A stretch of DNA of 11,748 nucleotides from Acutalibacteraceae bacterium (GCA_045531635.1 JAZSEI010000114.1:1-11748), one strand, 5' to 3'. Counted from the first letter of the stretch, positions 213 through 10,583 are shown. Translations and numbers: made by a program. Notes: generated by a model not told the origin, from the sequence alone.

Positions 213-1460
213 ATGTCATCATATAGCGAGCTTATAAAAAATTTTGATAAAATACGCAGTTATATGCGTGAATTCTATGTATATGGTTTTAAGAGTCGTG
301 AGGAATATACCAAAAAAAGCGCTCGTTCTTATGATGACGAGCGTAGAAGAATAGAAAGCTGGCTTGGTGATTATATGAGCTTTGTACGCACTCCAGAAGG
401 TAAAAATTTATTTATTTCCATTGATAGCCGTGTTTCACAGCATAACCCATTCTATAAAGCACTAAAGGCCAAAAGCTTTACTGATAAAGATATAACTCTG
501 CACTTTATTTTGTTTGATATACTTCATTCGTCAGAAGTGGTTATGTCATTGGCTGAAATACTAGAGCAAATAGATGAATATTTAGCTGTTTTTGAAGCAC
601 CAATGATGTTTGATGAATCTACTGTAAGAAAAAAGCTAAAAGAATATATATCACACAGTATAATTGAAGTTCAAAAAGTTGGTAGAAAAATGTTGTATCG
701 ACGTTCCGATAAAATTGCTTTGCCAGATATAACTGATGTGCTGAATTTCTATTCAGAGATTGCCCCTTGTGGTGTTATTGGTTCTTTTTTACTTGATAAG
801 CAAGAAAAGCAAAGCGATAGTTTTAGTTTCAAGCACCACTACATAACCTCTGCAATAGATAGTGATGTAACAGCAACACTGTTTAAAGCAATGCACGAAA
901 AAAGTATTATTAGCGTTGATAACCTGAGCCGTCGTGAAGTTGAGCCACAAAAAAACAGAATCATACCTTTGCAGATTTTTATCAGTGTTCAGAATGGAAG
1001 ACAGCACTTACTAGCTTATCAGCCAGATTTTAATGTAATTAAATCATTTAGAATTGATTATCTATCTAATGTGAAAATCGAATCACCAACACCCCGTTTT
1101 GATGAATTAAGAGCAGAGCTTGATAAGATGAAGTCGAAAATGTGGGGTGTTTCAACAAAGAGTCAACACTTTAACGCATTTGAGCATGTTGAGTTTACTG
1201 TTAAGATTGCTGATGACGAAGAGCATATTGTCCAAAGACTTGAACGAGAGAAGCGGGTAGGGCAAATAGAAAAGCTTGATGATAACACATATCGTTTTAT
1301 GGCAGATGTTTATGACATAAGCGAAATGATTCCTTGGATACGAACTTTTATTTGCAGAATAACCGAGCTTACTTTTTCTAATAAAGAACTTGAAAAGAGA
1401 TTTAAAAAGGATATAAAAGATATGTATCGTATTTACGGAATTGAAGAGGTGGTGGTATGA
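213..1460 (+). CDS. WYL-domain transcriptional regulator with four parts: an N-terminal extra domain (~90 aa), a DeoR/HTH_11-like winged HTH (~aa 95-170), a WYL domain and a C-terminal WCX-like extension
   Basis: The ORF track gives a GTG at 204. I prefer the ATG at 213, which follows the RBS GAGGTGA (201-207) by 5 nt. HTH-like segment: LAEILEQIDEYL...FDESTVRKKLKEY...IEVQKVGRKMLYRR. WYL-like segment: RIIPLQIFISVQNGRQHLLAYQPDFNVIKSFRIDYLSNVKI, with HLLAY where WYL normally sits and FRIDYL in place of the usual FRldRI motif. WCX-like tail: MIPWIRTFICRITELTF. The stop overlaps the next start (ATGA at 1457-1460). Confidence 0.7.
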   Translation: MSSYSELIKNFDKIRSYMREFYVYGFKSREEYTKKSARSYDDERRRIESWLGDYMSFVRTPEGKNLFISIDSRVSQHNPFYKALKAKSFTDKDITLHFILFDILHSSEVVMSLAEILEQIDEYLAVFEAPMMFDESTVRKKLKEYISHSIIEVQKVGRKMLYRRSDKIALPDITDVLNFYSEIAPCGVIGSFLLDKQEKQSDSFSFKHHYITSAIDSDVTATLFKAMHEKSIISVDNLSRREVEPQKNRIIPLQIFISVQNGRQHLLAYQPDFNVIKSFRIDYLSNVKIESPTPRFDELRAELDKMKSKMWGVSTKSQHFNAFEHVEFTVKIADDEEHIVQRLEREKRVGQIEKLDDNTYRFMADVYDISEMIPWIRTFICRITELTFSNKELEKRFKKDIKDMYRIYGIEEVVV

Positions 1461-2368
1461 TATTTAACGAAATTTACTCTGCCTACTATAATACAGTAGC
1501 CAAAATCATTACAAGTGTCTTAAACGATAATACTGACGAGAAGACTATAAATAGAATAGTTAGTGAAAATGCTTTTGCCGAAAGTGTGCTAAGTATTTTG
1601 CCTTCGCTCAAAAGTGAAAAATGGCAGCTTTTAAAAGCAGATATGACTACTCCTATTCAACATATACCTACAATGCCGTTAACACTAACTCAAAAACAAT
1701 GGTTAAAGGCAATTTCGTTAGACCCACGAATAAAATTGTTTGATATAGATTTTTCATCTCTTGACGGTATTGAACCACTGTTCACATCAGATGATTATTG
1801 CATCTATGACAGATATAATGATGGAGACCCATACGAGGATGAAGAGTATATCAAAAGATTTCAGATTATTCTGTCAGCTTTAAAGGAGAAACAATCACTT
1901 AAAATACAGATGATTAATCGTAAGGGGCATAGCTCTTCAGTTTTAGTTGTTCCACAAAGACTAGAATATTCAGAAAAGGATGATAAATTTCGCATTATAA
2001 GCACAGGATGTCGTTACGGAGCAACTATAAATCTGGCTCGTATCACATCGTGTGAAAAATGCTGTACTTCTAAAATTGTCACTCATAGTGCTTCTCTATC
2101 CTCAAAAGAAGTGTTAACACTCCGTATATTCGATGAACGTAATACTCTAGAACGATGTTTGTTGCATTTTGCACATTTTGAAAAACAAGTAGAACGAATT
2201 GATGAAAATATGTATCTGGTCTATCTTAAATACAATAAAGCAGATGAAACTGAAATTGTTATTCGTGTTTTGAGCTTTGGACCTATGGTTGAAGTGATAG
2301 AGCCTAATCATTTCAGGAAGTTAATAATAGAGCGTTTAAGAAAACAAAAAAGCTGTGAACTTAATTGA
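1457..2368 (+). CDS. Second WYL-domain protein (WYL plus WCX-like C-terminus). Its N-terminal region has no obvious canonical HTH. It is a paralogous partner of the upstream regulator, in a PafB/PafC-like tandem arrangement
   Basis: Start is coupled to the upstream stop (ATGA), with RBS GAGGTGG just upstream. WYL-like segment: SSVLVVPQRLEYSEKDDKFRIISTGCRYGATINLARITSCE. C-terminus FGPMVEVIEPNHFRKLIIERLRKQ matches the familiar fG..veVleP..lr tail of WYL/WCX proteins. Confidence 0.7.
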   Translation: MIFNEIYSAYYNTVAKIITSVLNDNTDEKTINRIVSENAFAESVLSILPSLKSEKWQLLKADMTTPIQHIPTMPLTLTQKQWLKAISLDPRIKLFDIDFSSLDGIEPLFTSDDYCIYDRYNDGDPYEDEEYIKRFQIILSALKEKQSLKIQMINRKGHSSSVLVVPQRLEYSEKDDKFRIISTGCRYGATINLARITSCEKCCTSKIVTHSASLSSKEVLTLRIFDERNTLERCLLHFAHFEKQVERIDENMYLVYLKYNKADETEIVIRVLSFGPMVEVIEPNHFRKLIIERLRKQKSCELN

Positions 2369-2384
2369 GTTCGCAGCTTTTTTT
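2346..2384 (+). terminator. Rho-independent terminator ending the WYL gene pair
   Basis: AGCTGTGAAC (2351-2360) pairs with GTTCGCAGCT (2369-2378): a 10-bp stem with one G-U, an 8-nt loop that contains the TGA stop, an A-run before and a T6 run after (2379-2384). Confidence 0.6.
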
Positions 2385-2396
2385 CCGTGTTATATA
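2369..2396 (+). promoter_or_regulatory. Candidate extended -10 promoter (TGtTATATA, 2388-2396) with a weak -35 (TTCGCA, 2369-2374) for the leader/SPFH/rtcB transcript
   Basis: The TGn-TATATA motif lies immediately after the upstream terminator. The -35 is poor, so confidence is low. Confidence 0.25.
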
Positions 2397-2399
2397 AGG

Positions 2400-2840
2400 A
2401 ATATATTGGTAAAATATCCTTGCAAGGTTACTTCAAGCGTGTGTATAAAATTAACCTACACTGCGGTGCACAAGGCTATGCCAAAGTGTATGCCAGAAGA
2501 ATCACTTGCTCCCTGGCAATAGGATATATGCCAGTTATGTTTTTTGATATCTAACGAGGCTCAAAATCTCAAAAGAAATGTGGGTTAGAAAACCACAACC
2601 ATTGTAATGTGCAAAAGCACACCAAACACTATCACAAAAAAGCAATTACTCTGCTGATGAATAGAAATTACTTTTCGTTAGCAATGTGCGAGTTGCCTTG
2701 CTTGAGAATGGATACCGTGTTTCAAACATATAAGCCAAAAGCTTTCTTTCCGCTTATATGTGCGATCACTTAAATTTTCAACCGTAATTGGTGCATGAGT
2801 AATTGCTGATGCAATTTAACCTTTAGGAGGATTATATATT
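2400..2840 (+). other. Long (~440 nt) non-coding leader or candidate structured RNA upstream of the SPFH-rtcB genes. It contains the palindrome CCTTGCAAGG and several direct-repeat motifs
   Basis: No ORF with an RBS is present. GC content is visibly higher than in the other intergenic regions of the window. Palindrome at 2418-2427. TATGCCA occurs three times (2477, 2488, 2527). ATGTGCGA occurs twice (2684, 2758), with AATGTGCAA at 2605. Confidence 0.3.
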
Positions 2841-3944
2841 ATGAAGAAAATTATTATTAACGAAAAACAAAGAGGACTACTATTTAAAAACGGAAAATAC
2901 ATAAAAATGCTTACTGCTGGCAAATACTATGCTTGTGGTGGAAAAGAAATAGAGGTATTAGATATGACTGAATTTCCAGTTACATCTGGTAACTGCGAAT
3001 TAGAAACTCTTCTAAAAGACAAAGCTGTTGCAGATTCTGTAGTTGTAGCTGACGTAGGTGACCAGGAAATAGCACTTCATTTTATTAATGGCAAATTTAA
3101 AGATGTTTTGCTTCATGGTAAATATGCTTTTTGGTCAATTATTGATAAGCACGAATTTAAGATTGTTGATAAATCTCAGACAGAGGTATCAGATGACGTG
3201 CCAGAATATATTTTTTCAAGAATGGCACCTCTTTACTATACTAAGATTGAGGTTTTAGAGTATCAGAAGGTACTGCTATATTTCAATCAGAAGTTTGTAA
3301 AGATTCTTGATGCAGGTACATATTATTTTTGGAGAAACGGTGTTAAGATTGATACAAGATGTGTTGATACCCGACTAACACAGATGAATATTACTGGACA
3401 GGAGATATTAACTCAGGATAAGGTTTCTTTACGCATTAATTTTGTATGCAATTACCGTGTAACAGATTATGTGAAGATACATACCGAGATTGATAACTTC
3501 ACCGAGCAAATGCATGTGGCTGCACAGCTTGCTTTGCGTGAGTATGTAGGAAAATATAAGCTTGACGAGATTTTGGAAAACAAAGTAGAAATGTCTGAGT
3601 TTGTATTTGCTAAGTTAAAAGCGAAAGAAAAGGAGCTTTTTATTGAGATTACAGACGCTGGTGTAAAGGACATTATTTTACCAGGAGAAATTCGTGAAAT
3701 AATGAACACTGTACTGGTTGCAGAAAAACGTGCACAGGCAAATGTAATTACTCGTCGAGAAGAGGTTGCCTCTACCAGATCATTGCTGAATACAGCAAAG
3801 CTGATGGACGAGAACAAAACACTCTACAAGCTCAAGGAGCTTGAGTATATTGAGCGTATCTGTGAGAATGTTGGTAATATCAACCTTAACGGGAATACAG
3901 ATGTACTAACACAGCTTACAGGTATACTCAAGGGTAACACATAA
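2841..3944 (+). CDS. SPFH/band-7 (stomatin/prohibitin/flotillin/HflKC) domain protein, 367 aa. It has no N-terminal TM helix. About 190 aa of N-terminal sequence is made of three tandem ~60-aa repeats that resemble the first beta-hairpin segment of the SPFH fold
   Basis: Strong RBS AGGAGG 8-10 nt upstream of the ATG at 2841. SPFH core: QEILTQDKVSLRINFVCNYRVTDYVK...DAGVKDIILPGEIREIMNTVLVAEKRAQANVITRREEVAS. The three repeats are RGLLFKNGKYIKMLTAGKYYA, IALHFINGKFKDVLLHGKYAFW and VLLYFNQKFVKILDAGTYYFW. Confidence 0.8.
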   Translation: MKKIIINEKQRGLLFKNGKYIKMLTAGKYYACGGKEIEVLDMTEFPVTSGNCELETLLKDKAVADSVVVADVGDQEIALHFINGKFKDVLLHGKYAFWSIIDKHEFKIVDKSQTEVSDDVPEYIFSRMAPLYYTKIEVLEYQKVLLYFNQKFVKILDAGTYYFWRNGVKIDTRCVDTRLTQMNITGQEILTQDKVSLRINFVCNYRVTDYVKIHTEIDNFTEQMHVAAQLALREYVGKYKLDEILENKVEMSEFVFAKLKAKEKELFIEITDAGVKDIILPGEIREIMNTVLVAEKRAQANVITRREEVASTRSLLNTAKLMDENKTLYKLKELEYIERICENVGNINLNGNTDVLTQLTGILKGNT

Positions 3945-4012
3945 ACAATGTCATCACCATTTGATAACTGTTAAAGATTTAAACGGTGTTGTTACAAAGA
4001 AAGGAAATTTTT

Positions 4013-5221
4013 ATGATAGAGATAAAAGGTAAGTTTAATACTGCTTTATGCTATACAAACGAACTTGAGCCTACTGCTTATGCTCAAATTGAAGCAGTGT
4101 GCAACGAAAAGGCTTTCGAAAATTCTAAAATCCGTATAATGCCTGATGTTCACGCTGGTAAGGGCTGTACAATTGGTACCACAATGACTATTGTTGATAA
4201 GGTTGTACCCAATATGGTTGGTGTTGATATTGGTTGTGGAATGTATACTGTAAGCTTAGGTAAGATTGATATTGACCTTGCAAAGTTTGATGAGGTTGCA
4301 CATTCTATTCCTTGTGGCAGAAATGTTTGGGAGGGCAGACAAGAACGCTTTGATTTAACACAGCTTCGTTGTTATAGAAATCTTAAGGATACTAGAAGAC
4401 TAGAGAGAAGCCTTGGCACCTTAGGAGGAGGTAACCACTTTATCGAAATTGATACTGATGAAAATGGAAATAAGTATTTAATAATCCACTCTGGCAGTCG
4501 TAATCTTGGTACACAGGTTGCTGAGTTTTATCAAACCATTGCAGTTGATTTGGATCTAGGCAAAGAGGAGTATTTTAAAAAGCGTGACGAAATCATTAGC
4601 ACATATAAGCAACAGGGTAGAAGAAGTGAAATTCAATCCACCTTAAAGCAACTAGCGAAGGAATGGGAAGAGAAGTCCCCGACAATGCCTAAAGAGCTTT
4701 GTTATCTTTTCGGTTCATTTATGGACGACTATCTACACGATATAAATATCTGTCAGCAATTTGCAAAGCGTAACCGTGAGAAAATGGCTGAGATTTTGCT
4801 ACTAAAGACAGGTATTACAGGTTTTGAAGCATTTCAGACTATCCACAATTATATTGATGTAGATGAAATGATTCTGCGTAAGGGCTCTGTTTCTGCTAAG
4901 AAAGGAGAAAAGCTGTTAATTCCGATTAATATGCGTGATGGTAGTCTTATCTGTATTGGTAAGGGTAATTCAGAGTGGAACTACTCTGCACCTCACGGAG
5001 CAGGTCGCTTAATGTCTCGTTCCGTTGCATTTGAAAAGCTTACTATGGAAGAGTACCAAAAGCAAATGGCAGGTATTTATACTACTTGTGTAAATACTTC
5101 TACTCTAGATGAGTCACCTATGGCATATAAAAATATGGATGATATTATAGCAAATATTGAACCTACTGCCGAAATTATTGCACATATCAAGCCAATTTAT
5201 AATTTTAAGGCTGCAGAATAG
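4013..5221 (+). CDS. rtcB: RtcB-family RNA 3'-phosphate/2',3'-cyclic-phosphate ligase (402 aa)
   Basis: Diagnostic RtcB motifs are present: MPDVHAGKG, GVDIGCGMY (Asp/Cys metal ligands), GGGNHFIEID, HSGSRNLG and APHGAGR (the His that is guanylylated). I prefer the ATG at 4013, with RBS AAAGGAAA 7 nt upstream, over the GTG at 3986 in the ORF track. There is no terminator between the SPFH gene and rtcB, so they are probably co-transcribed. Confidence 0.9.
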   Translation: MIEIKGKFNTALCYTNELEPTAYAQIEAVCNEKAFENSKIRIMPDVHAGKGCTIGTTMTIVDKVVPNMVGVDIGCGMYTVSLGKIDIDLAKFDEVAHSIPCGRNVWEGRQERFDLTQLRCYRNLKDTRRLERSLGTLGGGNHFIEIDTDENGNKYLIIHSGSRNLGTQVAEFYQTIAVDLDLGKEEYFKKRDEIISTYKQQGRRSEIQSTLKQLAKEWEEKSPTMPKELCYLFGSFMDDYLHDINICQQFAKRNREKMAEILLLKTGITGFEAFQTIHNYIDVDEMILRKGSVSAKKGEKLLIPINMRDGSLICIGKGNSEWNYSAPHGAGRLMSRSVAFEKLTMEEYQKQMAGIYTTCVNTSTLDESPMAYKNMDDIIANIEPTAEIIAHIKPIYNFKAAE

Positions 5222-5292
5222 CAATGTGTAGAAATTTTTAATTTTATATGGTACAATATGTTAAACTATAAATTATATGTGATGGTGGCAAA

Positions 5293-5886
5293 ATGATCAA
5301 TGTGATATGCAATCGTAGAAGTATTAGGAAATATTTAGATAAACAAGTTCCAAAAGAAATGATAGAACAAATTATCGAAGCAGGAAGAATGTCACCTTCT
5401 GCTAAAAATCGACAACCTTGGAAGTATGTTGTTCTTGGTGGTGAACATAAATCTGATTTTCTCAAGCATATGAAGAAAGGAATTTTGAGAGAAGAAAGCG
5501 AGCTTGCTCTGTTACCTAATTCTCGTAATGGAATTTCAGACGCAAATAACACATTGAGCATTATGCAACAGGCACCAATTATCATTGCTGTTTTAAATAC
5601 TAATGGGAAAAATCCATTTGATATAATCGATGTTGATAATAGATTTGTTGAGATTTTCGATACACTTTCTATTGGTGCATCAATCCAAAATATGTTGTTA
5701 AAAGCAACTGAAATTGGCTTGGGAACTTTGTGGATTGCTAACACTTGTTACGCATACAAAGAATTAACAGAGTATCTTGATACAACTTATCAGTTAGTAG
5801 GTGCAATAGCACTTGGTTATGCTGACGAAGCACCAAAGCAAAGACCAAGAAAAAAGTTAGAAGATATTGTAGAATATAGATTATAA
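5293..5886 (+). CDS. Nitroreductase-family flavoprotein (197 aa)
   Basis: N-terminus RRSIRKY...SPSAKNRQPWKYVV is the classic nitroreductase FMN-binding signature. A possible extended -10 (TGgTACAAT) lies upstream. Confidence 0.85.
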   Translation: MINVICNRRSIRKYLDKQVPKEMIEQIIEAGRMSPSAKNRQPWKYVVLGGEHKSDFLKHMKKGILREESELALLPNSRNGISDANNTLSIMQQAPIIIAVLNTNGKNPFDIIDVDNRFVEIFDTLSIGASIQNMLLKATEIGLGTLWIANTCYAYKELTEYLDTTYQLVGAIALGYADEAPKQRPRKKLEDIVEYRL

Positions 5887-5959
5887 AAAACTTAATTTCT
5901 AAGAAACTAAAACTTTGAGTATATAGACAGTTATTAAGTTAAAATAGAATAAGCAAGCC

Positions 5960-6004
5960 AATAGACACTTATCAGTTAGAAGATTGATAAGTGTCTATTT
6001 TTTT
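5960..6004 (+). terminator. Rho-independent terminator after the nitroreductase gene
   Basis: ATAGACACTTATCA (5961-5974) and TGATAAGTGTCTAT (5985-5998) form a perfect 14-bp stem with a 10-nt loop, followed by T6 (5999-6004). Confidence 0.75.
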
Positions 6005-6152: not shown

Positions 6153-6593
6153 ATGCAAATAGAAATCAGCATTGACGCAAAATATAAGATTCCCAAAATC
6201 ATAATAAAAACAGACAGAATAACAGATGAGGTCAATGAGGTTATGAAAAAGCTTTCAGACGACTCACCAAAGGTTATTACTGGATTTAAGGATGATTGCG
6301 TAGAGGTTCTTGAGCCTGAGCGAATTTACCGTTTTTATTCAAGCCAAGGCAAGGTTTTTGCTGTGACAGATAATGGGGAGTATACAGTAAGAACTCGACT
6401 TTACGAGATTGAGGAGCAGATGTGCTTACCAAAATTTGTAAGAGTGTCAAATTCAGAAATAATTAATCTGAAAAAGGTCAAAAATTTTGACCTGAGCTTA
6501 GCAGGCACAATCTGTGTGCAGTTTTCTGACGGCTCTGACACTTATGTGTCAAGAAGATATGTATCAAAAATCAAAAAAATATTAGGTATATGA
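6153..6593 (+). CDS. Stand-alone LytTR-family DNA-binding regulator (146 aa, no receiver domain)
   Basis: LytTR-like pattern: IIIKTDRITDEVNEVMKKL...IYRFYSSQGKVFAVTDNGEYTVRTRLYEIEEQM..FVRVSNSEIINLKKVKNFD..VQFSDGSDTYVSRRY. RBS AAGGGGGA 7-8 nt upstream. Confidence 0.75.
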   Translation: MQIEISIDAKYKIPKIIIKTDRITDEVNEVMKKLSDDSPKVITGFKDDCVEVLEPERIYRFYSSQGKVFAVTDNGEYTVRTRLYEIEEQMCLPKFVRVSNSEIINLKKVKNFDLSLAGTICVQFSDGSDTYVSRRYVSKIKKILGI

Positions 6594-6602
6594 GGTGTTT
6601 TT

Positions 6603-7058
6603 ATGTTTAAAGAAATTTTAAAAAGAAGTGTATTAAGTGCGTTAGGTGGTTTGTTTATTACTCAGCTTGTAGGTGTTATTGTTTCACTATGTATAGCAGA
6701 TGGCAATTATTATCCTGTTGTGCCTTCACTTACAGAGAGTATAGGTAGCGAAATCGGTGCAGTTATATTCCAGACAGTTTGCTCATTGTTGTATGGTGCT
6801 GTATTTGGTGGTATGTCAATAATATGGGAGCTGGATAATTGGAGTATTTTAAAACAAACAGTAGTTCACTTTTTAGTGGTTTCTTTTGTAAGCTTTCCTA
6901 TTGCATATGTTACCGAGTGGATGGAGCATTCTATAGTTGGAGGAATTACTTACTTTGCTGTATTTGCAGTAATTTACGCATTCATATGGTTTAGTCAATA
7001 CATAAGTGTAAGAAAGCGTATAAATGAAGTAAATAAAAAGCTTAACCAAACAGCTTGA
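6603..7058 (+). CDS. Small 4-TM membrane protein (151 aa), DUF3021-like. Probably the membrane inhibitor partner of the LytTR regulator, analogous to HdrM/BrsM
   Basis: Four hydrophobic helices are visible. RBS GAGGTG overlaps the upstream stop, indicating translational coupling. A LytTR gene followed by a small polytopic membrane protein is the recurrent streptococcal LRS architecture. Confidence 0.6.
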   Translation: MFKEILKRSVLSALGGLFITQLVGVIVSLCIADGNYYPVVPSLTESIGSEIGAVIFQTVCSLLYGAVFGGMSIIWELDNWSILKQTVVHFLVVSFVSFPIAYVTEWMEHSIVGGITYFAVFAVIYAFIWFSQYISVRKRINEVNKKLNQTA

Positions 7059-7092
7059 GTTATTTTTATATAATTATTTTACACTTTTATAG

Positions 7093-7256
7093 TTTATACT
7101 AAACTCTATTAAAAAGTAGACTTCTTTACGGCGTATTTTGCACCAAACTTCATACCGCGTCCTCGGAAGGCGACAGCCTTCCTGTGGGTCAGTATTCGTT
7201 TGGCACAAAATCTGCTCGCAAATCCTTGTCCACTTTTTATCAGAGTTTAGTATTAT
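7093..7256. repeat. Copy A of a ~140-160 nt extragenic element bounded by inverted repeats, with an internal GGAAGG/CCTTCC hairpin
   Basis: ATACTAAACTCT (7096-7107) is the inverse of AGAGTTTAGTAT (7242-7253). The core from 7116 is about 79% identical over 39 nt and 67% over another 39 nt to 9906-10000. Copy A carries an extra 20-nt GC-rich hairpin (7165-7182). Confidence 0.5.
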
Positions 7257-7456: not shown

Positions 7457-7603
7457 TTAAGAAAAGGTGTAAAATTCACCATGTATTTTTTGCTGTATCA
7501 TAATAAATAAAAAAGATTGCCCTTAAAGATTATCGTTCGATTTGAGAAGCAACTTATAAAATAAAGATTTGTATAAATACTAAAAAACAGAGAGGTGTAT
7601 CAA

Positions 7604-9211
7604 ATGAAAATTCAATTTATAGGAGCAGTTCACGAGGTAACAGGAAGCTGTACTTTGCTCGAAGTAAATGAGAAAATTTATTTAGTAGATTGTGGTATGG
7701 AACAAGGAATAGATGTTTTTCAGAATATTGCTTTACCTGTTCCAGCAAATTCTATTGAAGCTGTGTTTTTAACTCATGCACATATCGACCATTCAGGAAT
7801 GTTACCAAAGCTGTATAAGGATGGATTTAAAGGCTCGATATATGCTACAGATGTAACTTGTGATTTGTGCAATATTATGCTGAGAGATTCTGCTTATATT
7901 CAAGAATCAGAGGCAAAATGGCAATCCAAGAAAGAACAGCGAGCAGGTAGAGAGTCTGTGGAGCCAACATATAATATGCAAGACGCAATCGGAGCTATCT
8001 CGTGTTTTCGTAGATGTAATTACGGTGAATTGGTTTCTGCAGGTGAAGGTGTAGAAATCAGGTTTACAGATGTTGGACATCTTTTAGGCTCTGCCTGTAT
8101 TGAAATTTGGCTTTCAGAGGGTGAAATAGAGAAGAAGATCGTATTTAGTGGAGATGTAGGAAACATAAATCAGCCTATTATTCGTGACCCACAGTTTGTT
8201 GAAGAAACTGATTATCTTGTTATTGAGTCCACATACGGAAATCGTCTGCATAATGAGAATAAAAGTAATGTAGTAAACGAGCTAGCAGAATATATTCAAC
8301 AGGCATTAGATAGAGGAGGTAATGTGATAATCCCTTCATTTGCAGTGGGTAGAACTCAAGAGCTGTTGTATACTATCCGTGAAATAAAGCAAAAAGGATT
8401 AGTAACAGGGCACGAACATTTTCCTGTATATGTAGACAGTCCTCTTGCAGCAGAATCAACAGCTATATTTATGCAGTGTAATCCAATTTGCTTTGATGAA
8501 GAAACTATTGCGTTAATAAAGGAAGGGATAAATCCAATTTGGTTTGATGATATATATATGACAGTTACCTCTGAGGAATCTAAACAGATTAATTTGGATA
8601 AAAAAGCTAAGGTTATTATTTCTGCAAGTGGAATGTGTGAGGCAGGAAGAATTCGCCATCATCTAAAGCATAATCTTTGGCAGGAAAATAATATTATTCT
8701 TTTTGTAGGTTATCAAGCAGAAGGCTCATTAGGCAGAAAACTGATAGAGGGAGCAAAAACAGTAAAGCTTTTTGGAGAAGAAATTGCTGTAAATGCACAA
8801 ATTTGCACACTACACGGTTCTAGTGGTCATGCAGACTGTGATGGACTTATTAACTGGGTTTTAGCATTTAAAGAAAAGCCAGAATTGATATTTGTAAATC
8901 ACGGAGATGATAGTGCCTGTGAAGACTTCAAAAAATTATTGATTGAAAAAGGTTATATGGCAGATGCTCCATATAGTGGTACAGAGTATGACCTTGCTAC
9001 AGGAAAAATGACAGTTTATACAGAAGGCAAATTAATTGACCGAGTACAGCTGTTTAAGGGTAATAAACGTGCTAATATGCTTTATAATGATCTTGTATCA
9101 GAAGCAGAAAGACTACTTGCATTAGCTAAAGAACGTAAGGGTAGAGCTAATAAAGATAATGCTAAGCTCACTTCTCAAATTCGAGAGCTAATTGAAAAAT
9201 GGAAAGATTAA
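7604..9211 (+). CDS. Beta-CASP family MBL-fold ribonuclease (RNase J/CPSF73-like RNA-metabolising metallo-beta-lactamase) with a ~100-aa basic/coiled C-terminal tail
   Basis: MBL motifs: LVDCGM, HAHIDHSG, VGHLLGSA, FSGDVG. Beta-CASP motifs: ESTYG...and GSSGHAD. I prefer the ATG at 7604, with RBS AGAGAGGTG 6 nt upstream, over the GTG at 7595. Confidence 0.8.
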   Translation: MKIQFIGAVHEVTGSCTLLEVNEKIYLVDCGMEQGIDVFQNIALPVPANSIEAVFLTHAHIDHSGMLPKLYKDGFKGSIYATDVTCDLCNIMLRDSAYIQESEAKWQSKKEQRAGRESVEPTYNMQDAIGAISCFRRCNYGELVSAGEGVEIRFTDVGHLLGSACIEIWLSEGEIEKKIVFSGDVGNINQPIIRDPQFVEETDYLVIESTYGNRLHNENKSNVVNELAEYIQQALDRGGNVIIPSFAVGRTQELLYTIREIKQKGLVTGHEHFPVYVDSPLAAESTAIFMQCNPICFDEETIALIKEGINPIWFDDIYMTVTSEESKQINLDKKAKVIISASGMCEAGRIRHHLKHNLWQENNIILFVGYQAEGSLGRKLIEGAKTVKLFGEEIAVNAQICTLHGSSGHADCDGLINWVLAFKEKPELIFVNHGDDSACEDFKKLLIEKGYMADAPYSGTEYDLATGKMTVYTEGKLIDRVQLFKGNKRANMLYNDLVSEAERLLALAKERKGRANKDNAKLTSQIRELIEKWKD

Positions 9212-9236
9212 ATTGAAAATTCAGGAGAATGAAAGT

Positions 9237-9818
9237 ATGAGAATATGTGTATATGGTGCAGCGTCGCCAACTATTGACGATATCTACAAAGAAAAGGTAG
9301 AACATTTGGGTAAAGTAATGGTACAGCGTGGTCATTCACTTGTATTTGGTGGTGGCGGCAAAGGCTTGATGGGAGCCGTTGCGAATGGTGTTCATTCGGC
9401 TAAAGGTCATATTATTGGCGTAATACCACAATTTTTCTTAGATGAAAAAATAGAAGCAGTATGTGAGTTTTGCGATGAAATGATACTTACCGAAACAATG
9501 CGTGAACGAAAACAAATTATGGAGGATAATGCAGACGCTTTTATTATAGTACCAGGTGGTATTGGAACATACGAAGAGTTTTTTGAAATACTAACATTAA
9601 AGCAACTGTGTCGTCATAATAAACCAATTGTTATTTATAATATCGAAGGATATTATAATGAAATTGAAACAGCAATGAATGAAGCAATAAGAAAGAATTT
9701 TATAAAAGATAGTTGCGTAGAACTGTATGAAGTTACTGATGAGCTGGACAAATTATTTGAATGTGTTGAAAATACTCAGCAAAAAATAAGAACAGTAAAA
9801 GAGCTTAAAGATGGCTGA
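9237..9818 (+). CDS. LOG-family (TIGR00730-type Rossmann fold) nucleotide 5'-monophosphate nucleosidase / cytokinin-riboside phosphoribohydrolase-like protein (193 aa)
   Basis: GGGGKGLMGAVANG and VPGGIGTYEEFFE are the LOG signatures (the PGGxGTxxE motif). I prefer the ATG at 9237, with RBS AGGAGA 8 nt upstream, over the ORF-track start at 9192. It lies 25 bp after the RNase stop and is probably co-transcribed. Confidence 0.8.
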   Translation: MRICVYGAASPTIDDIYKEKVEHLGKVMVQRGHSLVFGGGGKGLMGAVANGVHSAKGHIIGVIPQFFLDEKIEAVCEFCDEMILTETMRERKQIMEDNADAFIIVPGGIGTYEEFFEILTLKQLCRHNKPIVIYNIEGYYNEIETAMNEAIRKNFIKDSCVELYEVTDELDKLFECVENTQQKIRTVKELKDG

Positions 9819-9883
9819 TAAATAAGCTAGAGATGAAATTAAGTTTAATGTATTTTATATAGAGATTGAAATGTTCTAAATCT

Positions 9884-10025
9884 TAATACTATTTAATTTC
9901 AAACAAGTAGATATCTTTTCGGCATATTTTTCATCTGACTTCATAGCCTTGCTGTGGTATGCTATTCGTCAGATAAAAAATTTGATCCAAAATTTTATCC
10001 ATTGTTAAGAACTGAAATAGTATAA
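9884..10025. repeat. Copy B of the inverted-repeat-bounded extragenic element
   Basis: ATACTATTT (9887-9895) is the inverse of AAATAGTAT (10015-10023). The core beginning AAGTAGATATCTTTTCGGCATATTTTTCATCTGACTTCATA aligns to copy A. Confidence 0.5.
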
Positions 10026-10073
10026 AATATTAAAGATTTAGAGGTGTTACGGAATAACCAATACTTATAAAAT

Positions 10074-10112
10074 AAAGTGTGTGAGTTATAAAAATAGCTT
10101 GCACACTTTTTT
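10074..10112 (+). terminator. Rho-independent terminator downstream of element B
   Basis: GTGTGTGAGTT (10077-10087) pairs with AGCTTGCACAC (10096-10106), including 3 G-U pairs, with an 8-nt loop. It is flanked by an A-run and followed by T6 (10107-10112). Confidence 0.5.
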
Positions 10113-10138
10113 GCATTTGTTTATAAGCGTGCTACAAT
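10111..10138 (+). promoter_or_regulatory. Candidate orphan sigma-A promoter: TTGCAT (10111-10116), 16-nt spacer, TACAAT (10133-10138)
   Basis: Good hexamers. No ORF with an RBS follows for about 440 nt. The degenerate element copy C lies within the putative transcript. Confidence 0.35.
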
Positions 10139-10439
10139 AAAAGAAAGGACAAAAAAGGAATAATCACAAAAGTGCATTATACACTTTTCTTCACAAACCC
10201 TAAATCTTTATCCATAATATTTCTGAAAATGCAACAACCTAAAAGTTAGTATTCTTTTCTGACTTTTGGGGTCAACTTTCTTTACGGTTATTGCATCTAC
10301 TGCTTAAGATTGACTATAAAGGCTGTAGTGTTAAAAATATAGAGTTAAATATAAATTCGTTTTGTAAGTAAAGATATGCCTGTGTTATAAAAAATCCGTT
10401 TGCATAAAAATTAATAACTGCTTATTGAGTTGAAATGCA

Positions 10440-10468
10440 TTGTATTTTTAACAACTTTGTGATATAAC
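10440..10468 (+). promoter_or_regulatory. Candidate promoter: TTGTAT (10440-10445), 17-nt spacer, TGa-TATAAC (10460-10468), for the metallopeptidase gene
   Basis: Extended -10 (TGn) plus a 5/6 match to the -10 hexamer at correct spacing. Confidence 0.35.
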
Positions 10469-10489
10469 ATATTATACAAGCAAAGCGAA

Positions 10490-10515
10490 TAGAAAAAAGG
10501 AGTACCTTTTTTCTA
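10490..10515 (+). promoter_or_regulatory. Perfect 11-bp hairpin (TAGAAAAAAGG-agta-CCTTTTTTCTA) in the 5' UTR of the metallopeptidase gene. Possibly an attenuator or processing signal
   Basis: Read directly from the sequence. A T-run begins 10 nt downstream (10526-10532), so it is not a canonical terminator. Confidence 0.35.
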
Positions 10516-10583
10516 TATAGCTTCCGTTTTTTATTGTGCTTTTACTTGTGCGTATAAAATAAAAAAAGAAGGTTGATAACAAT

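Follow-up and report, generated by a model that had tools for sequence, protein, structure and literature searches.

Operons built around the RNA ligase RtcB come in several described forms. Canonical Rtc loci include RtcR-rtcBA, the Salmonella variant rsr-yrlBA-rtcBA and the P. aeruginosa locus, which contains an SPFH gene, PaFlo8 (PMC13086221). RtcR, a CARF-AAA+-HTH protein, is activated by tRNA halves ending in a cyclic phosphate (PMC7790460). A further association, that of Band-7 (SPFH) proteins with RtcB and a tRNA-like RNA, the 'b7a-tRNA', was predicted by Burroughs and Aravind (NAR, 2016), as cited in a bioRxiv preprint (10.1101/312249). Here we describe a locus at positions 213-5221 of an 11,748-nt stretch of DNA from an Acutalibacteraceae bacterium (hereafter, the window), which carries, all on the plus strand, two overlapping WYL/WCX genes, a terminator hairpin, a 460-nt non-coding stretch and the genes for an SPFH protein and RtcB.

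To the extent that the b7a-tRNA systems are described in the preprint, the locus displays the same adjacency of RtcB and Band-7 genes, and its relatives carry exactly such a set, tRNA-like RNA included; in both cases, scaffold proteins and their RNAs have been swapped between cassettes. The association is thus a known one, and the present module is a variant of that kind. It differs from the systems outlined there in the size of its RNA (~400 nt), which contains two additional, covarying domains specific to the SPFH cassettes, and in its regulator, a WYL pair with a defined promoter element. Furthermore, the tRNA-like part is not a plain cloverleaf but, in most relatives, a circularly rearranged form (T-arm, closed acceptor hairpin, D-arm), and that of the window is degenerate. 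Like the canonical Rtc systems, the module is a presumably inducible operon around RtcB, complete with scaffold protein, tRNA-like RNA and a transcription factor of a ligand-sensing type. Unlike those systems, the window module has a WYL-based regulator and a sigma-70-type promoter whose -10 box is extended, and it includes neither RtcR nor RtcA nor Ro60. Searches with the E. coli queries recovered no RtcR or RtcA in the window or within ~6 kb around the module in 88 related loci, as the initial annotation had reported for the window, and no sigma-54-like site is present in the promoter region of the window.

A conserved gene block in Clostridia

Synteny was assessed in 80 species-level genomes, each count being restricted to loci with enough flanking sequence. 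Both WYL genes lie upstream of the SPFH gene in 46 of the 52 loci with enough upstream sequence (the adjacent pair is absent in the other 6), and RtcB lies downstream of it in 53 of 66 with enough downstream sequence (adjacent RtcB absent in 13), with all four genes found in the same order in 33 of 45 loci for which both flanks are available. Such synteny of WYL-WYL-gap-SPFH-RtcB across dozens of clostridial species is far beyond chance and not fortuitous, and it bears out the earlier idea of a module rather than a chance juxtaposition; the outer neighbours of the window's module are not conserved along with it. Judging from these comparisons, positions 213-5221 are one instance of an RNA-repair module with four conserved genes that is widespread in gut Clostridia.

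The ligase gene (4013-5221) encodes a 402-aa protein; its ORF opens at GTG 3986, and ATG 4013, preceded by the Shine-Dalgarno-like AAAGGAAA, is likely the true start. The product matches the Pfam RtcB family (E = 2.6e-57) and is 30.5% identical to E. coli RtcB, with identical residues at the positions aligned to D75, C78, N167, H168, H185, R189, H281, H337 and R341. The full set of catalytic residues is present, which agrees with its initial designation as a bona fide RtcB. In some relatives, the cassettes include further RNA-repair genes, namely those for RlaP and a CCA-type nucleotidyltransferase-HD protein.

The preceding gene (2841-3944), with a Shine-Dalgarno sequence AGGAGG at 2825-2830 that was read from the sequence and is conserved in the alignments, encodes a soluble SPFH/Band-7 ('slipin') protein of 367 aa (Band_7, E = 4e-31, aa 141-308). 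It consists of N-terminal repeats, the SPFH domain and, at the C-terminus, a helical region that is conserved. The repeats are three beta-hairpin units at about aa 5-42, 74-111 and 140-177 (BLASTP, 1e-4 and 4e-6), whereas homologues have 5 or 7. No hydrophobic segment was detected, the top 19-residue Kyte-Doolittle mean being 0.94, consistent with the cytoplasmic, repeat-bearing protein that had been proposed. Its identity to homologues is 60-85% across Oscillospiraceae, Lachnospiraceae and Ruminococcus, among others. The terminator scan found no terminator-like site between the SPFH and rtcB genes, in line with the initial annotation.

The WYL pair and its candidate operator

The first two ORFs, originally annotated as translationally coupled WYL-domain proteins resembling PafB/PafC, are recognized as such by Pfam WYL and WCX matches, the PADLOC WYL profile and Foldseek searches with AlphaFold2 (AF2) models. 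WYL1 (213-1460; 415 aa; ORF opening at GTG 204) is assigned as an HTH-WYL-WCX transcription regulator: it scores just above the Pfam WYL cut-off (21.9 versus 21.8 bits, aa 222-291), its WCX match is weak, and it matches the PADLOC profile with E = 4e-13 (aa 214-407). Its median identity to relatives is 63%. WYL2 (1457-2368; 303 aa), a WYL-WCX paralogue with a helical N-terminus, overlaps the end of WYL1 by 4 nt (ATGA), in keeping with the suggested coupling, and is supported by Pfam WCX (24.3 bits against a cut-off of 23.9) and the PADLOC profile (E = 8e-8, aa 127-296). Its homologue directly follows that of WYL1 in 46 of the 52 relatives whose sequence extends far enough upstream.

The AF2 models of both proteins are of low overall confidence. 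In that of WYL1 (pLDDT 59.9 overall), the confident segments, near aa 95-165, 218-295 and 324-410, include a winged-helix-like arrangement of helix-strand-helix-helix-strand-strand (aa 95-165) and a beta barrel (aa 218-295), and follow an additional N-terminal region of ~90 aa with an unassigned fold. Its top 32 Foldseek matches in the PDB are all DriD, PafBC, BrxR, CapW or the CRISPR-associated entry 6oaw. The WYL2 model (pLDDT 67.7) contains no confident HTH and matches the DriD C-domain, PafBC, BrxR and CapW over ~175-260 columns. Both models match solely HTH-WYL-WCX regulators in the PDB. On these models, only WYL1 of the two paralogues appears to possess a winged-helix-like DNA-binding domain. 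The pair thus resembles PafBC, DriD, CapW and BrxR in domain order and fold, but differs from the solved HTH-WYL-WCX members in its low identity to them (11-18%), the additional N-terminal region of WYL1 and the lack of a confident HTH in WYL2. The analogy with PafB/PafC accordingly holds for the adjacency of two paralogous genes, but not for the domain composition of WYL2.

The WYL operon ends in an intrinsic terminator, already noted in the initial annotation, in which a hairpin and U-tract (2346-2384) span the WYL2 stop codon; the hairpin proper (2346-2383) has a predicted energy of -21.8 kcal/mol (z = -7.36). A simple terminator scan did not detect it. The arms co-vary among relatives, with GCTGCGAA/TTCGCAGC replaced by GTTGCGAA/TTCGCAAC, and in several loci, including L008, L011, L016, L024 and L041, the left arm is gone while the right arm is retained. 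The right arm is part of a conserved promoter element, the invariant 20-mer TTCGCARCTTTTTTTCCGTG (= TTCGCAGCTTTTTTTCCGTG) at 2370-2389, which places it at roughly -52 to -33 in the operon promoter. The promoter (2387-2415) is of the sigma-70 type, with a -35-like GTGTTA (2387-2392) and an extended -10 box, TGGTAAAAT (2407-2415), separated by a 17-nt spacer that includes the TG extension; transcription is predicted to start near 2421-2423. Relatives retain the box TGGTAAAAT as well, and in nearly all loci it keeps the same 17-nt spacing from the 20-mer.

The window contains one copy of the 20-mer versus 0.01 expected by chance. Exact single copies were found in 53 of the 80 genome loci, every time upstream of the RNA and SPFH gene, and 52 of the 74 loci that extend far enough upstream contain the element; it is not located downstream of the pair in L082, the closest relative by WYL proteins. 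At least 120 exact matches were identified in metagenomes and 2 in viral contigs, and nearly all of those with enough flanking sequence adjoin a WYL pair and head an RtcB cassette. The 20-mer accompanies the WYL pair in co-directional and divergent layouts alike, and the cassettes behind it include SPFH>RtcB, DUF2828>RtcB>RlaP>CCA-transferase, RtcB>DUF2828 and RtcB-only. Because the 20-mer stays with the WYL pair whichever cassette lies downstream, it is the likely operator of WYL1/WYL2, which lends further support to the previously suggested regulatory link between the pair and SPFH-rtcB. Like the targets of HTH-WYL-WCX regulators, the proposed site is asymmetric and located in the -35 region, but the genes that it would control serve RNA repair rather than DNA repair or phage defence. 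The extended -10 box could let the promoter fire unaided, which would favour repression, whereas the weak -35 favours activation.

The RNA between promoter and SPFH gene

The initial annotation described the region upstream of the SPFH gene as a motif-rich leader. The leader is indeed present, but this description understates it: covariation points to a conserved, highly structured RNA of ~400 nt. The 460-nt region 2381-2840 has an MFE z-score of -4.68 and no match in Rfam 15 at E < 1. Its 5' domain (2438-2494) is predicted to form helices P2 (2438-2443 with 2459-2463) and P3 (2465-2471 with 2486-2491; apical 2474-2476 with 2480-2482). Within this domain, 93.2% of cells are paired versus 27-57% in slid controls, with none of 500 shuffles reaching the observed value, and compensatory changes include AU:26/GC:19 and AU:25/CG:16. 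The 3' domain (2642-2806) is closed by a long-range helix (2642-2651 with 2797-2806), followed by a hairpin (2653-2683) and a long bent hairpin with outer helices 2684-2692/2788-2796 and 2700-2709/2774-2782 and inner helices 2717-2720/2766-2769, 2730-2734/2753-2757 and 2738-2740/2747-2749; its conserved loops are GGAUACC (2710-2716) and CACUUAA. According to RNAalifold on 51 sequences, 29 of the 32 predicted pairs of the 3' domain show compensatory changes. Here, pairing reaches 87.7% of cells and the covariation score 0.60, against 36-47% and 0.10-0.18, respectively, in slid controls (0 of 500 shuffles). The closing helix taken separately shows compensatory changes at all 10 pairs and is 85.8% paired, compared to 29-39% in controls, and here, too, no shuffle out of 500 attains the observed value.

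Between the two domains, most relatives carry a Y-RNA-like tRNA mimic, a module of the family that was overlooked in the initial annotation and is largely lost in the window. Its T-arm (GCGGG-TTCGAAT-CCCGC), which covaries, is followed by a closed acceptor-like hairpin, in which all 6 pairs show compensatory changes, and by a D-arm. Of 61 gaps, only those of the window and L070 lack the T-arm motif, and leaders with such motifs are found behind the 20-mer promoter whatever the cassette type. Some relatives' loci yield a tRNA prediction with ARAGORN or Rfam, whereas ARAGORN finds no tRNA in the window. In the alignments, a degenerate T-arm remnant (GTGGG-TTAGAAAA-CCAC) is retained at 2580-2596 of the window, while the other two elements are deleted; a deletion of ~65 nt is shared with the two closest relatives, L085 and L086, in which the module is likewise eroded or deleted. 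The tRNA-like module has decayed in the window's lineage, leaving only the SPFH-specific RNA core. A small, apparently conserved hairpin, TGTGC-AAAA-GCACA (2608-2621), which comes after the tRNA-like region and ahead of the 3' domain, aligns by eye with GTGTGC-GAAA-GCACGC and GGTACACG..CGTGTGC of relatives.

Relatives share with YrlA (Rfam RF02553) both the order of elements, V-T-AS-D (variable hairpin, T-arm, closed acceptor-like stem-loop, D-arm), and the conserved residues of the T-loop and D-loop. By contrast, the best score against the Rfam YrlA model is 14.8 bits versus a gathering score of 69, there is neither a Ro60 gene nor a Ro-binding stem, and the module forms part of a far longer RNA. 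In ~22 relatives, a hairpin with a 7-nt loop resembling an anticodon loop is located just 5' of the T-arm; the loop is mostly CUGUNAA, that is, U33 followed by anticodon-like GUC, GUA, GUG or GUU, with UUU in some.

The 5' and 3' domains follow the cassette type. The 5' signature GTGTATGCC was found in 12 of 14 SPFH cassettes, 1 of 41 DUF2828-first and none of 20 RtcB-first cassettes; across the 5' and 3' signatures, the counts are 12/14, 0-2/41 and 0-2/20, respectively.

Possible roles of the RNA and the proposed WYL switch

We consider a WYL-switched SPFH-RtcB RNA-repair module, with the RNA as a partner of the SPFH protein, to be the best explanation as a whole, with a probability of about 0.6; that the domain signatures follow SPFH presence suggests that the 5' and 3' domains are this partner. 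Alternatively, and with a real if lesser chance, region 2420-2830 could be a purely cis-acting leader, i.e. a riboswitch-, T-box- or protein-binding attenuator that tunes SPFH-rtcB after initiation, with no stable SPFH-partner RNA. Since the RNA always comes first in the operon, behind the promoter and ahead of the genes, and the terminator scan found no terminator-like site either before it or between it and the coding genes, it may act in cis alone. In most loci, the closing helix stops ~20 nt short of the Shine-Dalgarno sequence, which fits such a leader, and both domains are retained in the window after loss of the tRNA mimic, as would be expected if they had their own regulatory function. 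Nevertheless, the search revealed neither a terminator/antiterminator pair nor a conserved helix that would sequester the SD, and in L021 and L051, other ORFs intervene between the RNA and the SPFH gene, so that the RNA is not tied to the SPFH ribosome-binding site. Furthermore, the signatures track SPFH rather than RtcB or the promoter, a pattern typical of protein-RNA partnerships, and an internal Y-RNA-like module is typical of trans-acting ribonucleoprotein RNAs. The cis-acting and SPFH-partner readings do not exclude each other.

Two other scenarios concern the signal. The WYL pair might, like DriD or PafBC, respond to DNA damage through single-stranded DNA, with SPFH-rtcB just one target of its regulon rather than part of a dedicated circuit for sensing RNA damage. 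Although DriD and PafBC are the best structural matches and the Salmonella rtc operon is likewise induced by DNA damage (PMC7790460), we regard this as unlikely: the 20-mer occurs once in the window and once per related locus examined, always heading an RtcB cassette, with no second target in these loci, and the joint movement of the WYL pair and the element with RtcB cassettes argues for a dedicated local regulator. More doubtful still is that the RNA, and in relatives its tRNA or anticodon-loop mimic, serves as a ribotoxin decoy or sensor, the cyclic-phosphate fragments of which would be read by the WYL proteins until resealing by RtcB resets the switch. GUN anticodons, which predominate in the ~22 anticodon-like loops, are those cut by colicin E5-type tRNases. 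The activation of RtcR by cyclic-phosphate tRNA halves and the T-arm motifs behind the promoter in every cassette type also fit this possibility. The anticodon-loop mimic is, however, confined to a minority of loci and variable in sequence, and models that need a tRNA mimic cannot apply to the window because the window and its two nearest relatives are without the module, and the window, despite having neither the mimic nor an intact T-arm, retains intact genes. Moreover, the WYL ligand may be DNA, given that, according to the titles of PDB entries 8tp8, 9c5g and 7tzv, the structures solved for WYL regulators of the same type include single-stranded DNA.

The interpretation in the initial annotation, a damage-inducible RNA-repair unit under a WYL heterodimer that might counter ribotoxins, is as a whole partly supported, and the likely WYL operator and the covariation-supported structured RNA extend beyond it. 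The three checks by which it could have been refuted all spoke for it: ORF1 and ORF2 are WYL/WCX proteins, the gene order recurs in many species, and the flanks of related loci contained no rtcR or rtcA. In the module that we favour, WYL1 and WYL2 would jointly recognize the asymmetric 20-bp element, and they would probably do so as a hetero-oligomer in which one head alone reads the DNA. Binding of a nucleic-acid damage product (cleaved tRNA, another RNA fragment or single-stranded DNA) by the WYL domains would switch the promoter, by either activation or de-repression. The particle formed by the RNA and the SPFH protein would serve as a scaffold or cofactor for RtcB, which would reseal RNAs cut to 2',3'-cyclic-phosphate/3'-phosphate and 5'-OH ends. 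The WYL pair of these Clostridia would thereby fill the place that the CARF domain of RtcR occupies in Proteobacteria.

Gene content and conservation of the RtcB module

The module occupies positions 213-5221 of the + strand, which carries all ORFs of at least 60 aa with family matches in the window. It comprises the genes for two WYL-domain proteins, WYL1 (213-1460, +; 415 aa) and WYL2 (1457-2368, +; 303 aa), which overlap by ATGA, followed by the genes for an SPFH/Band-7 protein (2841-3944, +) and RtcB (+), for which the ATG at 4013, 68 nt after the SPFH gene, is the most likely start. Synteny was assessed in 80 SPFH loci, sampled as one genome per species from Oscillospiraceae, Acutalibacteraceae, Lachnospiraceae, Ruminococcus, Robinsoniella, Oscillibacter and others. 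The WYL1-WYL2 pair lies directly 5' of SPFH in 46 of the 52 loci with enough upstream sequence, and RtcB lies 3' of it in 53 of the 66 loci with enough downstream sequence, at a distance of less than 300 nt in 47 of these 66 relatives. All four genes occur in the order found in the window in 33 of the 45 loci with both flanks, and the four genes, which the initial annotation had treated as a unit, thus form a syntenic block. None of the remaining genes of the window (nitroreductase, LytTR, DUF3021, beta-CASP nuclease, LOG and M50-like) is present in any of the 80 loci, and we therefore place the end of the module at RtcB. Neither RtcA nor RtcR, already thought to be missing from the window, was detected there or across 88 loci by tblastn with the E. 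coli queries (E ≤ 1e-3).

Several relatives carry additional ORFs without Pfam matches. Such ORFs are found between the RNA discussed below and SPFH in loci L021 (5366-5983; 205 aa) and L051 (two ORFs of 100 and 80 aa; 5421-5978), and between SPFH and RtcB in loci L004 (7261-7812; 183 aa) and L044 (7200-7811; 203 aa). Directly 3' of RtcB, locus L014 contains a match to group II intron D1-D4 (7011-7235, - strand; 34.7 bits versus a gathering score of 32). In the window itself, the first scan-detected terminator past rtcB is a perfect 18-bp hairpin with a T-run at 5960-5999, after the nitroreductase gene, so that rtcB and the latter gene might share a transcript; a promoter-like site is located between the two genes (5229-5257). 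Further downstream, positions 7595-9211 encode a likely RNA nuclease with a beta-CASP/RMMBL metallo-beta-lactamase fold, and its gene overlaps by 20 nt with that of a LOG/'lysine decarboxylase'-family protein (9192-9818); in no relative is either gene found in synteny with the RtcB module. The long region 9820-10580, which precedes the gene for the M50-like peptidase, is non-coding and AT-rich (GC ~0.27).

RtcB enzymes join 3'-phosphate or 2',3'-cyclic-phosphate ends to 5'-OH ends. The window protein matches PF01139 with 195.4 bits (cut-off 27), and in a global alignment, residues D75, C78, N167, H168, H185, H281 and H337 of E. coli RtcB, the set of metal- and GTP-binding residues and the guanylylated histidine, are all identical, in agreement with the intact catalytic motifs noted initially. 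We predict that this protein is a 3'-phosphate/5'-OH RNA ligase. All NCBIfam RtcB subfamily models score below their own cut-offs (e.g. PRK09588, 139 versus 407), so the window RtcB belongs to a distinct clade.

The SPFH protein matches PF01145 over aa 141-308 (108.8 bits; E = 4e-31). Whereas an N-terminal transmembrane or hairpin anchor is typical of stomatin, HflK/C and flotillin, the window protein has no membrane anchor: its N-terminus consists of hydrophilic beta-hairpin repeats and the highest 19-residue hydropathy mean is 0.94, with no hydrophobic segment. Judging from its sequence, it is, as originally described, a soluble and atypical SPFH/Band-7 member. Its relatives number in the thousands, the best 120 being 57-85% identical; few of these 120 have a source name, which then reads 'slipin family protein' or HflC-type regulator. 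The N-terminal repeat (F-x-N-G-K-F ... G-x-Y-x-F-W) is present in three copies in the window and in seven or five copies in the homologues P0002 (638 aa), P0094 (507 aa) and L076 3858-5726; hence, the repeat number is variable. The layout of the SPFH protein, in which tandem beta repeats are combined with an SPFH domain and a helical region, recalls the major vault protein.

Assignment of the first two ORFs required structural comparison. WYL1 scores 21.9 bits with Pfam WYL, which is borderline with respect to the cut-off of 21.8, and has a weak WCX match, and WYL2 matches Pfam WCX with 24.3 bits (cut-off 23.9). The PADLOC profile of CRISPR-associated WYL proteins covers the WYL and WCX regions of both WYL1 (4e-13) and WYL2 (8e-8). 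Sequence searches against the PDB returned nothing useful for either protein or for the DUF2828 protein encoded in some related cassettes, and therefore a fold search was needed for WYL1 and WYL2. The AF2 models, built from shallow alignments (76-85% identity), have low overall confidence and confident domains, and are used here for domain-level statements only. The significant PDB fold matches of both models are exclusively HTH-WYL-WCX regulators (DriD, PafBC, BrxR, CapW and entry 6oaw). In WYL1, which has no Pfam HTH match, aa 95-165 are modelled as a winged-helix-like segment (pLDDT 76-90), and full-length fold alignments to DriD and PafBC extend over ~350-370 columns. The N-terminal 125 aa of WYL2 are helical, modelled with low confidence and mostly outside the fold matches, which mainly cover the C-terminal WYL-WCX half. 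Thus, Pfam, PADLOC and fold matches all agree with the initial annotation of both ORFs as WYL-domain proteins. As exemplified by the DriD, PafBC and CapW structures, WYL domains bind single-stranded nucleic acid and act as a switch for the DNA-binding domain attached to them.

A promoter element shared by several RtcB cassettes

Alignments of relatives reveal nucleotide-level conservation in the gap between WYL2 and SPFH. Its start, the 20-mer TTCGCA(G/A)CTTTTTTTCCGTG (2370-2389), is essentially invariant; WYL2 itself is 42-75% identical to its relatives. The window contains a single copy of the 20-mer (0.01 expected by chance), and exactly one exact copy is found in 53 of the 80 loci. In nearly every locus, 17 nt separate it from the conserved extended -10 box TGGTAAAAT, a distance that places the 20-mer at about -52 to -33. 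The terminator postulated after the WYL pair corresponds to a very stable hairpin at the WYL2 stop codon (-21.8 kcal/mol, z = -7.4), of which the first half of the 20-mer forms the right arm in the window and in many relatives, with both arms co-varying. The left arm is absent, with the 20-mer unchanged, in L008, L011, L016, L024, L041 and other loci, which indicates that the 20-mer is conserved for its own sake.

The exact 20-mer was also matched in metagenomes (at least 120 contigs) and in IMG/VR (two contigs), and nearly all of the contigs with enough flank carry the WYL pair beside it, in either co-directional or divergent orientation. The cassettes under the 20-mer include SPFH>RtcB with or without RlaP, DUF2828/DUF7788>RtcB>RlaP>CCA-type nucleotidyltransferase, RtcB>DUF2828, and RtcB alone; thus, the invariant unit consists of the WYL pair, the 20-mer and RtcB. 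In the alternative cassettes, found behind the same 20-mer and WYL pair in L087 and L088 (IMG/VR) and in L090-L209 (metagenomes), a DUF2828/DUF7788 protein takes the place of SPFH, in many cases with RlaP and a CCA-type nucleotidyltransferase-HD protein after it; the leaders of these cassettes are devoid of the SPFH-specific RNA domains and often contain a T-arm. Sequence searches did not link the DUF2828 protein to Ro60. Two further contigs, L081 and L082, carry the closest relative of WYL1 (P0122; 85% identical). In L081, the WYL pair follows LytTR and DUF3021 genes whose products share 94% and 86% identity with those of window 6153-7058, and in L082, neither the 20-mer nor the RNA follows the WYL pair; a very close relative thus carries the module in rearranged or split form.

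The co-occurrence of the WYL pair and the 20-mer is the strongest evidence available here suggesting that the former regulates the promoter containing the latter. We infer that the 20-mer, which is non-palindromic, would fit a complex with a single DNA-reading head. The combination of a weak -35 and an upstream site suggests activation, but repression would be equally compatible with an extended -10 and a site that covers the -35. A sigma-54 promoter was considered and rejected, given that no sigma-54-like site was found in 2369-2840 and that the matches are at chance level, with none at the promoter.

Structured RNA of the SPFH cassettes and its tRNA-like module

The 460-nt gap (2381-2840) folds far better than shuffled sequence (z = -4.68) and, in the window, matches no Rfam family. 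For the 3' domain (2642-2806), RNAalifold on 51 sequences yielded 32 pairs, 29 of them with compensatory changes; 87.7% of the cells are paired compared to 36-47% for slid partners, and the covariation score is 0.60 versus 0.10-0.18, with no shuffle reaching the observed values. In the closing helix (2642-2651 with 2797-2806), compensatory changes occur at all 10 pairs. The corresponding fraction of paired cells in the 5' domain (2438-2494) is 93.2% versus 27-57%. The ~440-nt leader recognized in the initial annotation is thus indeed structured. Both domain signatures are present in 12 of the 14 SPFH cassettes found via the 20-mer, compared to 0-2 of the 41 cassettes that begin with DUF2828 and 0-2 of the 20 that begin with RtcB, and hence the two domains go with the SPFH protein rather than with the promoter or RtcB. 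The ORFs inserted between the RNA and SPFH in L021 and L051 make a mechanism that depends on the SPFH ribosome-binding site less likely.

Other readings of the leader fared less well. The small ORFs of 54-55 aa coincide with alignments that show base-pair covariation and frame-shifting indels. A canonical tRNA in the window was ruled out, as none was found by ARAGORN or Rfam, and an acceptor stem formed by GUAUGCC and the sequence following the T-arm of relatives was rejected because GUAUGCC pairs locally in helix P3, with covariation, and the post-T-arm sequence makes a hairpin of its own. Helix P1 (2419-2422 with 2434-2437) is weak, with 76% of the cells paired, would overlap the predicted transcription start and is left out of the proposed structure. 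The hammerhead-like CUGAUGAG in L001 is one strand of a variable stem and the motif is not conserved, and the idea, formed by eye, that some conserved 5' sequences resemble the sarcin-ricin loop or the 3' region of 16S was dropped as unsupported.

In almost all relatives, a canonical T-arm, GCGGG-UUCGAAU-CCCGC, is located between the two domains. It is followed by an acceptor-like stem-loop of free sequence in which the pairing is kept (compensatory changes at 6 of 6 pairs), then by the D-arm-like CCAGUGGUUUGG and a tetraloop hairpin. ARAGORN calls a tRNA in the gaps of four relatives, the Rfam tRNA model reaches 40.3 bits in L078, and one locus contains an ordinary cloverleaf above the Rfam tRNA threshold. 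In ~22 relatives, a hairpin with a 7-nt loop, mostly CUGUNAA, precedes the T-arm, and ARAGORN interprets these hairpins as anticodon arms for His, Asp, Asn or Lys. These anticodon-stem-loop look-alikes just upstream of the T-arm (L008, L009, L011, L013, L014, L016, L017, L026, L027, L044, L073, L078 and others) have the loops CUGUCAA, CUGUAAA, UUGUGAA, CUGUUAA or CUUUUAA, with mostly GUN at the anticodon positions, the set found in Asp, Tyr, His and Asn tRNAs. In the window, where neither ARAGORN nor Rfam detects a tRNA-like RNA, the T-loop is mutated (2580-2596) and ~65 nt including the acceptor hairpin and D-arm are missing. The two closest relatives of the window display the same reduction of the tRNA-like module, which appears to be a lineage-specific loss rather than an assembly artefact. 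The SPFH-specific RNA core and the genes persist in the window without the tRNA mimic.

Relationship to known systems and proposed function

As cited in a bioRxiv preprint (10.1101/312249), Burroughs and Aravind (2016) predicted that Band-7 proteins and a 'band-7-associated tRNA' accompany RtcB, and the Band-7/tRNA combination was seen there as a parallel to Ro60 with Y RNAs. Therefore, the core association put forward in the initial annotation is not new. The adjacent Band-7 gene, separated by 68 nt, is shared by the window, whereas the tRNA-like RNA, with its T-arm, acceptor and D elements, is found in the relatives but not in the window. The same order of elements, namely variable hairpin, T-arm, closed acceptor stem-loop and D-arm, is characteristic of the YrlA Y RNAs (PMC4201824). 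The Rfam YrlA model aligns end to end with L001, at 14.8 bits versus a gathering score of 69, so that the likeness is one of design and topology, not membership; the model has no match in the window, and no Ro60 was identified.

In the canonical Rtc system, RtcB is accompanied by RtcR, which is a CARF-AAA+ sigma-54 activator, by RtcA and by a sigma-54 promoter; none of these three was found for the window module. In Proteobacteria, the rtc operon is switched on by cyclic-phosphate-ended tRNA halves binding RtcR (PMC7790460), and in P. aeruginosa, an SPFH gene is located within the rtc locus (PMC13086221). Neither Rfam 15 nor the literature searched includes a WYL pair with an invariant promoter element as putative regulator of a whole set of Clostridial RtcB cassettes, a large two-domain RNA specific to SPFH cassettes or the reduced RNA form of the window, and rtcB, Band-7 and WYL go unmentioned in the motif-discovery papers of the Breaker laboratory.

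The analysis shows which parts are present and in what order, as well as the architecture of the promoter, the structure of the RNA and the patterns of co-occurrence. We propose a working scheme in which WYL1 and WYL2 would recognize a product of nucleic-acid damage and act on the promoter via the 20-mer, the 5' and 3' domains of the RNA would bind a soluble SPFH oligomer, and the RNA-SPFH particle would assist RtcB. In a more far-reaching reading, to which we assign roughly one chance in five, the 5' and 3' domains would represent a large structured RNA of a new class, dedicated to a soluble SPFH protein with a variable repeat number. The two would form a cage- or ring-like RNP holding damaged tRNA or rRNA for RtcB, and the entire system would be under the control of a WYL heteromer that reads RNA-damage fragments. 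Such a particle would follow the logic of vaults, in which repeat domains, an SPFH-like shoulder and a helical cap are combined with vault RNA, or of the Ro60-Y RNA particle.

The defined 20-bp promoter element and the two WYL proteins make operator binding and the ligand directly testable, and the large covarying RNA, absent from Rfam 15 and tied to SPFH cassettes, offers a testable RNA-protein partnership, with natural variants, including the window with its lost tRNA-like module, that separate the roles of the parts of the RNA. These handles, from abundant gut and rumen Clostridia, bear on what bacterial RtcB repairs, on how the damage is detected and on why RNA-repair operons contain an SPFH protein of the membrane-scaffold type. 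If the RNP and WYL-heteromer reading is true, the module would be a Firmicute counterpart of the RtcR-CARF circuit, an independent solution in which WYL regulators would stand in place of the CARF regulator RtcR.
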